Below, piece by piece: positions 48,130-52,745 of a stretch of 64,000 nt of DNA; the first letter of the stretch is position 1; each line of letters starts with the position of its first letter. The stretch covers positions 84,754,001 to 84,818,000 of the forward strand of contig OZ024743.1 in the NCBI GenBank assembly GCA_964016885.1, in the 5' to 3' direction. Source of the stretch: Eledone cirrhosa. Taxonomy: Eukaryota. A model generated the notes under the pieces. The model had not been told where the DNA came from, made no database searches, and saw only the letters and a program-made list of their open reading frames with translations. Both the position numbers and the translations under genes were made by a program.

Positions 48130-51100
48130 TTATCCCTAGCGCATCATATGGCGGAAGAGAGACGTGATTCATCATACGAGTGTATATGAACACATATACA
48201 ATATGATTATGCTAATTCAGAATGTGTATTTAATTAGAAGGGTCTCTACAACAACTACAACGGTACGCGATGGGGCCCACCCACAGCCCCGGCGGACAGA
48301 ATGGAGAAGGCGTTTCCCCGGAGAACGGCGAGGGAGACGCGCTGGAAGAGCCACTCCAACTCATGGGGCTCACACCTGCGACTGGCCAGCTCAGTGCCTA
48401 TGGCGGTGAGTAAGGAGGTAGCCCTGGGGCCGAGGACACCAGAAGTCTCCACTGCCAGGGGTACAACCGCAAACCTGTCGGAGAGCGACCGGCATTTGAG
48501 GAGTTTGGTCCCCCCAGCCCGACGTGCAGCAGAACCTGGGTCAGTCGCAGACTGCACCAGGTTGCAGCTGCAGAAAGTGTCGGTGCAAGTGGCATCCACA
48601 GACGAGGGGTTTGCCACCGCGGAACGGGAAGATGGTCATGCCATCTGGCCTTTTGCTGTCCCCTCGATCCAGCCCCACTGGCTCGAGCTGGGATGGGAAG
48701 CCTGCAGCGTCCAAGCCATGTTTAATGACCTCGTTGAGGGCAGCATGGCGTGGAATGCGGCCGGCACTGTGGCGACAGGAAAGCGGGTGGAGGCCGAAAG
48801 AGTCCACGGTGGAACCGCAGCGACATTGGCGTAGCTGGCAGATCCGGAGGCCGAGCCTCAGGGAAACGCTGATGCGCAGACTATGCTTGTCTAGCTGCGT
48901 GCCAGTGGAGAAGGAGGGCAGGGCATGGAGCCAGGCACCACTGTGGGGTTTGGAGGCTGCACAAAAACAAGCAAGGCAGTGCTGGTCGAGCTGGCGCGTG
49001 AGCCTGTCTAAGGCCAGGCTGCACTAGATGGCATCCCAAGTGCGTTGGGGGAACTTGACGTCAACAGGGGAAGAAGGAGGAGGGACGTCTACTGGGCTAA
49101 GTCCTAGCCGGTCCCACGTCTCACAGGCGGCCTCACGTTCTCTGAACACAGAGGGTTCTGTTGTGTTTTGAAGAACCCTGCTGACGAGGATGTGGCATGA
49201 GGTTACCGACGAAAGATATGCCGTCAAAGCTAGTGAGATCAGGGATCGGAGGCGAAGGCCGCCATACCTGACAGGTAAAGTGGCCTGTTGCCACCTTGTC
49301 GTCAAACTTGACGTTGCATATCTCCTCAGCTGCTGTTCGGATGGCAGGCGGGTGGATCGGTGATCCAAGAATGAGGACATCCTCTTTGGGGGTTACCTGA
49401 ACCTGGCGTACAAGACGGAGGCTGCAAAGCTCGCAGCATCGAGGTTGACATTCACCACCGATTGAAGGTCATGGCAGACCGTCCACACAGGCCCGCCCAA
49501 CGTAGCATCATCCAGATACGAAACATTGAGGGTGGCTGTGATACTCCGGGCGATGTGGTCAATACCAAGGGCGAACTGGATGGGTCCCAAAGAGTCGCCC
49601 TGTTGGACCCCAGTGGCCGAAGGTATGACCATATCAGCAGCAAGTAGCATGGTCGGGGCTCCATAAGACAGGTAGGCCAGCGAGTAGGCAGAGGGGACTC
49701 GGCTGAAGCAGGCCTCAAGCAGATGATCCCGGCGTAAAGAGTTAAAGGCATTCCTCATGTCAAGCTTGACAATGAGGTGCCTGGAGTCCCTGGATGCCGG
49801 TTCCAATGGGCAGCTGTTGCAGAACTGCCTGGTTGCATGAGCGGCCCCCTCACAGCCACCGGACACGCCGACACCCAGTTGCACCGGACTAAACTCCTCA
49901 CCCAGTTCGTGTTATGGACTTGCAGATCACCTTGGCAGCCAGCCTCCGGAAGACATTGCCCACAGCAATGGGGCGTATGCCACCTTCTTTCTTCTGAGAG
50001 CGGTGAGGTTGGGCGAAAAATAGAAGCCTCGGGCGTAAGGGTCCAGGGCGCCATGGATGAGCCTATTGGGGAGTGCCACAATTGCACTCAGAAGGCGGCA
50101 TCCGGCCTCAGCGGACAGGGGAGATATCAACTCCCTGAGGTGGCCTGGTCGGAGACCATCAACACCTCCGCAGCTGCTAGCTGGGAAGGACCTGATGGCG
50201 GACATGATGTCTGCATCAGAAGCCACAAGGAGCTAGTGTGGGACGGGTGGGGGTATGGGTTTGAGATCAGTAGGTGGCTCAAGGTGTTTGTGTTGCAGAG
50301 CAGCCAGGACCTCCTTGGTGGGTTGGAGGACAGTGTCCTCTGAGGCAACAACTCTGACTGCGGCCGAGACATCACCCATGATAAGCTTGGCATTTACCTG
50401 GTCACACAAACGCTTGGCACCGGAGGATAGGGGGTACTTGAGGGTGGGGTGTGTGGCGTCCTTGGGCATGCTTGGAATGGGCGCTCGCCCAAAGGACGAG
50501 ACATTGGCCCAGAAAACAGAGTTCCACGTGCTGTAATCTGGTGGGCTCTTAGAAAACTAGGAGTAGATGAATGGCTTGTGAAAGTGGTACAAGCCATGTA
50601 TAGGGGAGCAGTCAGCAAAGTTAGGGTTAGCAATGAGTATAGCGAGGAATTTAGCGTACAGGTTGGGGTCCACCAGGGCTCTGTTCTTAGCCCTCTCCTG
50701 TTCATCATAGTCCTGCAGGCAATAACGGAGGAGTTTAAGATCGGATGCCCATGGGAACTCCTAGCTGAATCTATGGTAGAACTAGAGAATAAATTCCAAA
50801 CTTGGAAGCAGGGACTAGAAAGAAAGGGTCTCAAAGTCAACATGACAAAGACTAAGGTCCTTGTAAGTAGACGAGAAAACAGAACCCAGATCCCCTCAGG
50901 GAAATGGCCTTGCTCAGTATGTAGGAAAGGTGTAGGTAGGAACTCCATTCTCTGCCCCAAATGCAAACAATGGGTACACAAGAGATGTAGCGGGATGTCA
51001 GGAAGCTTAATTAAGAATGTAGGATTCACATGCAGCAGCTGTGCTGAGACAGCAAGCAGCAAACAGCCACAGGAAACAAGTACCACCAATCTCTGGGAGG

Positions 51101-52745
51101 GCCCTGTAGAAACAGTAGACAGCTTCTGCTACCTAGGTGACCGAATTAGCAGCGGAGGTGGGTGTTCAGAAAGTACAATAACTAGGGTAAGAACGGGATG
51201 GAAGAAGTTTAGGGAACTACTACCACTGCTAGCTGCAAAAGGCATCTCCCTCAGAATGAAAGGCAGACTGTATGATGCGTGTATCCGAACAGCGATGTTG
51301 CATGGTAGTGAGACCTGCGCGCTGAAGGTGGAAGACTTACGGAGATGAGAGAGAAACGAAGCCTGCATGCTCCGATGGATGTGTAACAGTAATATACGTG
51401 AATGACAAAGCATAAATGAATTGAGAGAGAGACTGAGGATAAGAGGAATCAAATGCTGTGTGCAGGAGAGGCGGTTGCGCTGGTATGGACATGTGATACG
51501 TATGAAGGATGACAGCTGCATAAAAAAAGGTGCAGAGCACTAGAAGTTGATGGAAACCGCGGAGTGGGGAGACCCAAGATGACCTGGGATGAGGTGATAA
51601 AAGCCGACCTTACCCAATTACACCTCTCAAAGACAATGACACACGACCGTGACTTCTGGCGTCACGCAGTAATACAGAGTACCCGACCTCCCATGAGTAC
51701 AAGCTGAAGCATATAGACAATATGCCCCCCCCCCCCCCAAGGTGGTCGTGGAGGTGCCACGGCAAAAAAACACCCAGCCCACACTGTAAAGTGGACGTGT
51801 TGGCGCCACGAAAAAGCACCCAGCACTCACTGTAAATGAGGTTGGTGTTAGGAAGGGCATCCAGCTGTAGAAATCAAGCCAGATCAGTTCCTGTATGAGC
51901 AAGGCATGGTCAGCCGACCAGACACTGCCCACAACAGGACAACCCGTCTAACCCATGCTAGTGTGGAAGAACGAACGTAAAACGGTGATGATGATGATGA
52001 TGATGAAGGCTGCTGTTGACCGGTCGCCCCGGTCAACGCCAGAGCTGGGGAGGCCGAGGGCAAGTGGGGCGAAATAGAACAGCCGCTCCCAGTCACTGGC
52101 TCGATTGGAGTCCAGGGTGCTCTCAATCGAGGAAGCAAAGGCATCAGCTACCGACACCCGTGCCGCTCTCGGGATCCTGAGTGGGATCTTCCGGAGCCGC
52201 CTGAGCCGAGCGATGTTGACCAGCGAGGCTTGGGCGCCAGGCAAGCTCGCTGTCCCATCTGGTGGTGTGCCAGACGGCCGTGGCTGGGAAGACGTAGGGA
52301 AGAGGCAACTCCTGCACCTCCACGATGCGAGGGCATTGGAAGCTCGATGAGTCAAGCCAACGCAGGTGAGGTGGTGGAAGCAGCCGCACCCCAAACAGTT
52401 CTGGCCCCTCTTCCGTTTGTTAGTGGTGTTGCAGGTGTCGGATGGAAGATGGGGCATGGGGCCGGGGACTGGGGCACCGAGCGGCATCAGGGGTGGGTGG
52501 AAGGGAAAGTGCTGGTAAGAGGGCCTCATAGCTCACCTATATATATATAGAGGTGTCAGAAAACAAGAGAGAAAAGAAGGAGCTGCATGGAGGGGGACAC
52601 ACAGGAAGGTAGAATGTTAGTAAATGAATGAGTGAATAGATGAATGTACAAAAAAAGGGGTGGGGGAGAACGGGGTTGTTCCCAGCGGAAAGACCCAGAG
52701 TTCAGCACGCACGGAACATATGTAAGCAAAATGTGGTCCCCATCC
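48130..52745 (-). mobile_element. RLE-class non-LTR retrotransposon (CRE-clade-like), frameshifted, with N-terminal PHD-like finger, RT, CCHC knuckle and restriction-like endonuclease; interrupted by an RTE
   Basis: CLGCGCFHHLTC...[108 protein letters not shown]. Confidence 0.88.
50514..52006 (+). mobile_element. 5'-truncated RTE-type LINE (RT with embedded PHD finger), 3' UTR and (GAT)n tail
   Basis: RVPRAVIWWALRKLGV, GVHQGSVLSPLLF, CSVCRKGVGRNSILCPKCKQWVHKRC, FCYLG, LHGSET, LRWYGHV, GRP..TW; premature stop at 51346. Confidence 0.92.

Follow-up and report, generated by a model that had tools for sequence, protein, structure and literature searches.

What is the block of GC-rich DNA that lies upstream of the first coding exon of the brm gene in the cephalopod Eledone cirrhosa, and where did it come from? 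The window analyzed here is a stretch of 64,000 nucleotides from contig OZ024743.1 (assembly GCA_964016885.1, positions 84,754,001 to 84,818,000 of the forward strand), and all coordinates below refer to it. An earlier note had read positions 48130 to 52745 as a single, near full-length, CRE-like retrotransposon with a restriction-like endonuclease (RLE), relatively young, possibly acquired horizontally, and guided to its targets by a chromatin-reading PHD-like finger. We found that the interval consists of two nested elements, not one. It probably represents a dead copy of an abundant, dispersed long interspersed nuclear element (LINE) with the order PHD, reverse transcriptase (RT), CCHC, RLE, which is likely of the CRE clade, was likely inherited vertically in cephalopods, and was later split by an antisense RTE-type LINE.

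The outer element is a PHD-RT-CCHC-RLE LINE on the minus strand. It runs from 52712 to 48245, and these positions replace the former ends at 52745 and 48130. The domain order given in the earlier note stands, as the motifs were all located in this sequence. The parts of the two elements are listed below.

52005..52712, minus strand: 5' part of the outer element, with a 5'-truncated leader, the PHD-like finger and a linker
52305..52433, minus strand: PHD-like C4HC3 finger (Pfam PHD E 0.011; E 0.0011 in an intact copy)
50516..52004, plus strand: nested, 5'-truncated RTE-type LINE, with the C-terminal half of the RT, a PHD, a 3' untranslated region (UTR) and a (GAT)6 tail
48245..50509, minus strand: 3' part of the outer RLE (CRE-like) LINE, with RT, CCHC, RLE nuclease, stop codon and tail
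49507..49986, minus strand: RT core (GIRPIA region, QLGVG, KLDMRNAFN, GVQQGD, YLDD; RVT_1 E 4.1e-8)
48438..48825, minus strand: CCHC finger and RLE motifs (RH, E, RPD, D, ETSG)

The first in-frame ATG of the outer element is found at about 52487. Within the RT, QLGVG occupies 49867-49884, QQGD 49594-49611 and YLDD 49507-49518; the CCHC finger follows at 48775-48825, and the nuclease motifs RH, PD and ETSG lie at 48733-48750, 48640-48651 and 48438-48455, respectively. The stop codon of the window copy is located at 48255-48257, and then comes a 17-nt 'G-type' tail. Four in-frame stops were detected within the tblastn segments, together with indels at about 49992, 49914, 49410, 49296 and 48600, a deletion of ~180 bp near 49340, and a 9-bp deletion that removes one cysteine of the first PHD pair. 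Because of the stops, the frameshifts, the ~180-bp deletion and the loss of the PHD cysteine, this copy is dead.

The RT-bearing and PHD-bearing halves are separated by a second, plus-strand LINE of 1.5 kb (50510-52004), antisense to the outer element. A single intact element was considered and rejected: other copies join both halves directly, and the uninterrupted junction was recovered in 16 of 26 of them with a strict pattern. At the insertion site 5 bp of the outer element are deleted and 6 bases (50510-50515) are unassigned; no target duplication was found there. The insert retains the C-terminal half of its RT without the YADD codons, and has a PHD of its own at 50911-51042 (plus strand, Pfam E 6.9e-7). 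Its identity to a separate, abundant APE-RT-PHD family is 96-97%; an intact member of that family (L144:824-3943, minus strand) encodes 1041 amino acids with an APE-type endonuclease, RT and PHD. The single open reading frame (ORF) with APE and RT is thus present in that member, and the short tandem-repeat tail, here (GAT)6, in the insert; from this architecture and from its motifs, we take the insert to be of RTE type. The PHD of the insert family lies inside the C-terminal part of the RT region, and two unrelated LINE classes at this locus each carry a PHD.

The outer family has the organization of RLE-type elements (R2 group): one ORF, RT followed by CCHC, a PD-(D/E)xK-type nuclease, and no APE domain. 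A profile built from 79 relatives gave its best E value, 1e-23, with R2 structures, versus 1e-9 with L1. Foldseek ranked R2 first for an AF2 model of the relative P0121 (pLDDT 91); the fold searches with this model bear on the RT and RLE and not on the PHD. The named relatives come from Octopus sinensis, a cuttlefish, a barnacle, moths, a tardigrade and a sponge, and two of them carry the submitter label SLACS; the nearest ones pointed to an octopod host. The profile, the Foldseek ranking and the SLACS labels support the RLE-type, CRE-like assignment of the earlier note, in the setting of a tree that holds no named CRE reference, and the family likely belongs to the CRE clade. Protein searches returned 715 and 710 matches, of which the best 120 of each were considered; among these no protein exceeded 61% identity and no named relative exceeded 53%. 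The nearest clusters in the ESM Atlas were mostly from sponges and cnidarians. Many relatives contain a ubiquitin C-terminal hydrolase (PF00443; listed for P0135, P0139, P0143, P0144, P0148, P0152, P0167, P0172 and P0181), which is C-terminal in P0144, and one relative has an Ulp1 protease, reminiscent of Ulp1 in NeSL/Utopia.

A careful RT tree was computed from 42 rows chosen from a quick-method tree of 92 rows. One clade (support 99/94) unites the family with 10 O. sinensis proteins, one cuttlefish protein and 10 rows without a species name. Each of the 11 named relatives from cephalopods falls within it, and no named relative from any other group does; identity between the family and the O. 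sinensis and cuttlefish proteins is about 50%, and the tree does not settle the order inside the clade. Among molluscs, CRE elements are described as almost exclusively cephalopod (PMC10294476), and two CRE clusters of O. sinensis are given in supplementary file 1 of that source (O.sinensis_113_LINE and 126_LINE), so CRE LINEs in octopus are already known. Since such LINEs have already been listed for O. sinensis, vertical inheritance within cephalopods or coleoids is simpler than horizontal transfer and is the likelier history.

The outer family is dispersed and abundant in the genome. A 24-mer from the RT-RLE linker gave 778 exact genome matches, which is a floor for the abundance of the family, and its reversed control gave none; first-look candidate counts were 7896 and 1050. 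The search for intact copies suggested in the earlier note found no complete ORF among the copies read, the longest frame (930 amino acids) lacking both ends. Four copies (L038, L041, L052, L055) keep both ends with large internal losses, down to about 1.1-1.5 kb, and are possibly non-autonomous derivatives. Divergence was estimated from 53 of 56 copies, three being dropped for deletions. The copies are star-like, with a median distance of 2.8% from the majority sequence, and the window copy differs by 4.5% (last 1075 columns). The reading as a relatively young family is moderately supported; the copies being best matches, these distances are low estimates, and the window copy itself is more diverged.

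The contrast in composition noticed earlier is real: the interval has a GC content of 58-59% versus 34-36% in the host DNA, and about 50 CpG per kb versus 8-11 per kb. The majority sequence of the outer family has a GC content of 62.5%. CpG transitions are uneven among the copies, amounting to about 5% or less in 39 and to 7-18% in 14; the window copy, at 11%, is losing its CpG faster than most. Fast-decaying copies lie in CpG-poor flanks (median observed/expected ratio (o/e) 0.48 versus 0.77, p 0.0013). This correspondence between decay and depletion of the flanks fits the report that octopus methylates gene bodies rather than transposons (PMC9476566). The richness in GC and CpG is explained without a foreign origin, because low methylation of transposable elements would keep the coding composition. 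CpG decay in copies of the same age would thus serve as a fossil reporter of gene-body methylation (53 copies, including the window copy at 48262-49340).

The PHD is real. None of the eight zinc ligands varies among 27 aligned PHD-bearing sequences, nor does the final Trp, and Pfam PHD recognizes 25 of the 27 (E 0.05 or better). The C4HC3 pattern was detected in 29 of 120 long relatives, across several branches, and is therefore not special to the outer family. Among 21 readable genome copies, a sample biased toward the state of the window copy and including one duplicate pair, both first cysteines are present in 9, one is missing in 11, and one copy is frameshifted; the full signature (C4HC3 with Trp before the last CxxC) is thus found in 9 of the 21 and in the relatives, while the window copy lacks one Cys. 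The domain has a net positive charge in 28 of the 29 relatives. Residues of H3K4 readers are not conserved: at the positions that we take to be the cage and the acidic anchor, Trp occurs in 6 of 29 relatives and Asp (two before Cys1) in 1 of 29. A single-sequence fold of the region (pLDDT 44) was unusable. Rather than reading histone marks, the basic PHD likely replaces C2H2 fingers as a module with a general role, either structural or in contacts with nucleic acid.

The ends of the copies proved to be their most variable part. No common 3' UTR was found among the copies; the sequence that they share runs out one or two codons short of the stop codon, which lies inside the tail, so that each tail lineage supplies its own. 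The tails of 56 copies branch in a nested manner, falling into 3 groups when read to 12 nt and into 7 when read to 44 nt. Tail end points lie anywhere between 1 and 108 nt beyond the last base common to the copies (the anchor), in a continuous spread. Copies with A-type tails form a group of 41 rows (SH-aLRT 90) in the tree of copies, for which only the split between A and non-A tails was used. One tail pattern had 80 exact matches, and at all 20 fetched loci it stood directly behind the element. The 5' flanks are nested likewise, up to 750 nt, and branching tails are seen as well in an older RLE family, represented in the window by a fragment at 54900-55190. A 23-nt terminal module followed by AATAAA had 99 matches, of which 25 were fetched (L115-L139; it also occurs in L007, L059, L095 and L108). 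RLE coding sequence or UTR lies upstream in 12 of these 25 and belongs to an outer-family tail lineage, to the older family or to a third body; the other 13 have no RLE body within 1.5 kb. The tail end is not fixed in this family, which likely acquires new tails in the course of its spread. The same short segment, presumably a short interspersed nuclear element (SINE), was seen in the 5' flank shared by one lineage (L045, L048, L051 and L054) and in the 3' tail of L123.

Junctions were compared for signs of a target. Target duplication was sought in 46 copies, 41 of which have the 5' junction inside the locus; repeats of at least 8 nt near the junctions were present in 5 of 41 copies, versus 5.9% of 1640 mismatched pairs, and none abuts both ends. 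As none rose clearly above chance level, target duplication was rejected. The 75 downstream flanks, whose alignment for target preference had been proposed, are unrelated and share no motif; they are AT-rich only, with 72% AT in the 30 nt past the 3' junction versus 63-66% (p 6e-6, n=75). Insertion into one repeat target, usual in classic CRE members, is not the case in this family. Classic CRE members also have a target-site duplication and a poly(A) tail. Here the junction repeats stay close to chance level, and A8 or longer follows the tail in 3 of 75 copies. Targeting of microsatellites, for which (TA)n counts of 17 of 56 versus 3 and 6 had been obtained, is not claimed, as that count took in tail sequence.

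These observations suggest how the family may spread, by target-primed reverse transcription as in R2. Since the element has no fixed end on either side, its copies are likely transcribed by read-through from host DNA. Its one protein would then recognize the RNA without a conserved 3' UTR and nick AT-rich sites with hardly any preference for sequence, and reverse transcription would start at a variable point in an AT-rich 3' extension. Productive copies would hand to their daughters a piece of their own flank or the tail of another RLE family; tails might occasionally be exchanged by template switching or by insertion into the end of another element. It is possible, as a tentative proposal, that the family represents an undescribed animal branch of CRE-like elements in which a basic PHD has taken the place of C2H2 fingers, target specificity and a fixed 3' end have been lost, and tails, together with their stop codons, have been captured one after another from flanks and swapped between RLE families, the protein copying RNA that has no dedicated 3' UTR.

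The variable tails could also be ordinary subfamily 3' UTRs worn down once the copies had inserted, or flanks that were copied along in a segmental duplication or by another carrier, and not products of the element's own copying. A tail of at least 26 nt, which could count as a short UTR, is shared by 40 of 56 copies, and L038 and L039 are a true duplicate pair. This explanation is unlikely: the end points are spread continuously, and the nested branches are common to unlinked copies whose flanks are otherwise unique. The same branching in the older family, and one 23-nt terminal module behind three different upstream bodies, also speak against it. The PHD, in turn, could read a histone mark and steer insertions to particular chromatin, for instance to expressed gene bodies like that of brm. 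Its invariant zinc ligands and final Trp and its Pfam matches would suit such a function, as would the position of the window copy in a gene body and the Asp that octopus copies have two residues before Cys1, presumably the H3K4me0 anchor position. That Asp is nearly absent from the relatives, however, and the domain is basic. Moreover, the 39 of 53 copies with little CpG decay have CpG-intact flanks (the median o/e of 0.77 stands without a genome-wide baseline), which suggests that most copies are not in methylated gene bodies; one Cys is missing at 10 or more loci from different tail lineages; and 91 of the 120 long relatives, some of them truncated, have no PHD by pattern. We therefore regard histone-guided insertion as unlikely, and the chromatin-reading module of the earlier note is not borne out, the PHD being basic, its reader residues not conserved, and the junctions devoid of a target motif or duplication.

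Recent horizontal acquisition would account for a single burst with a star-like tree, for a GC content of 59% in a genome at 35%, and for the absence of named relatives above 53% identity among the matches listed, the closest proteins having no species name. Against it, the clade holds several divergent O. sinensis and cuttlefish lineages, older sister families are present in the same genome, and no protein exceeded 61% identity among the best 120 matches of each search. With the composition otherwise explained and the family grouped with 10 O. sinensis proteins and one cuttlefish protein, such an acquisition appears very unlikely, and vertical inheritance in cephalopods is preferred.

Several results weigh against our interpretation. 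With respect to class, LINE-1 (Z 25.8) comes out level with R2 (Z 23.5) in the fold comparison by the VIA aligner; a long-query search gave 32 matches, none of them trypanosomatid or fungal (CRE1, SLACS, CZAR, Cnl1, MoTeR); and the REL pattern published for CRE/SLACS, as given in PMC12857005, was found in 0 of 120 relatives in strict form and in 110 of 120 with relaxed spacing, L036, a copy of the outer family, likewise not matching the strict form. With respect to descent, no species name is attached to the nearest proteins (53-55%) or to 10 of the 22 rows in the 99/94 clade, which leaves room for an old transfer from another animal, and the cephalopod rows alone do not form one branch (7 changes). 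The copies were the best matches to the window copy, so that age is biased downward and the PHD deletion is enriched. AATAAA occurs in 17 of 75 tails, and with the 3 of 75 that are followed by A8 or longer, some lineages may be polyadenylated. Runs of (TA)n stand behind the tail in 14 of 75 copies versus 6-10 at greater distance, which hints weakly at a preference. Where copies have flanks in common, their junctions could be placed only imprecisely. Every step of the proposed mechanism is inferred.

The host locus places the element as follows. The gene brm is on the minus strand, with QLQ, HSA, SNF2 and Helicase_C exons above the Pfam cut-offs, and the outer element has the same orientation, as had been stated. 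Three further features were recognized.

32297..32459, minus strand: first coding exon of brm (SMARCA2/4-like), with a polypyrimidine tract and AG acceptor; the downstream exons match Pfam
54900..55190, minus strand: short 3' fragment of the older, related RLE family, whose UTR is pyrimidine-rich and whose copies share 70-93% identity with the fragment
63141..63300, minus strand: candidate non-coding brm exon, predicted from the sequence, with a GTAAGT donor at about 63146

The splice acceptor of the first coding exon lies at ~32460 and the ATG at ~32395, and the outer element is upstream of this exon. As an acceptor precedes the exon with the ATG, at least one non-coding exon must lie further upstream. 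The GTAAGT donor and a rise in CpG o/e (0.5-0.9 at 59-64 kb versus mostly 0-0.4 inside brm) suggest a non-coding first exon there, and a position of the element in intron 1 of brm is plausible. The brm copy is ordinary neutral debris. A 35-bp tandem repeat (4.7 copies, 47942-48109) lies just past the 3' end of the outer element, outside it.

It is the outer family that is probably a new variant, not the brm locus. The RLE elements studied so far depend on their 3' UTR and on a fixed target. A successful family without either would show relaxed template choice and priming and how site-specific ancestors became dispersed, and its nested tails would allow source elements to be traced. RLE elements are under development as gene writers (PMC13580325); if our reading is true, the family would offer an RLE writer independent of a UTR, with tails that record the genealogy of its source copies. 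The literature searched contained no PHD-bearing CRE branch and no such tails; Repbase Reports, Fell et al. 2025, PMC2829327 and supplementary files 13-33 of PMC10294476 lie outside that search, and any of them may describe the family.

Like the CRE clade (CRE1/CRE2, SLACS, CZAR, Cnl1, MoTeR1, FoTeR; PMC4640811, PMC12857005), the outer family has an RT followed by CCHC and a restriction-like endonuclease, and it shares the REL motif order C-C-H-C, RH, E, RPD, D given in PMC12857005. It differs in being dispersed and not site-specific, in having neither target duplication nor a fixed 3' UTR, in the N-terminal PHD where C2H2 fingers are described for FoTeRs, and in a REL spacing that departs from the published pattern. 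The clusters O.sinensis_113_LINE and 126_LINE (PMC10294476) are likewise CRE-type LINEs from octopus, as compared by description only; identity between the outer family and named O. sinensis proteins does not exceed 50%. The insert resembles the octopus RTE LINEs (RTE-BovB type; RTE-2_OV, PMC12988792, PMC8967140), as these are described, in its single-ORF APE-RT organization, great abundance and microsatellite tail. It differs by the PHD in the C-terminal region of the RT, and is likened to RTE-2_OV by description only.

R2 is specific to 28S and recognizes its 3' UTR. Both the sequence profile and Foldseek ranked its structures (R2Bm 8gh6, R2Tg 9dou/9nl3, 9nl2) first over the RT and RLE. Identity between these structures and the outer family is 15-18%. 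In L1, 3' transduction carries flanking sequence to daughter copies, and template-switch chimeras lead to 3' ends that are shared between different RNAs. Here, in contrast, tail variation is general among the copies read; the stop codon is part of the tails, which mostly come without poly(A) or duplications.

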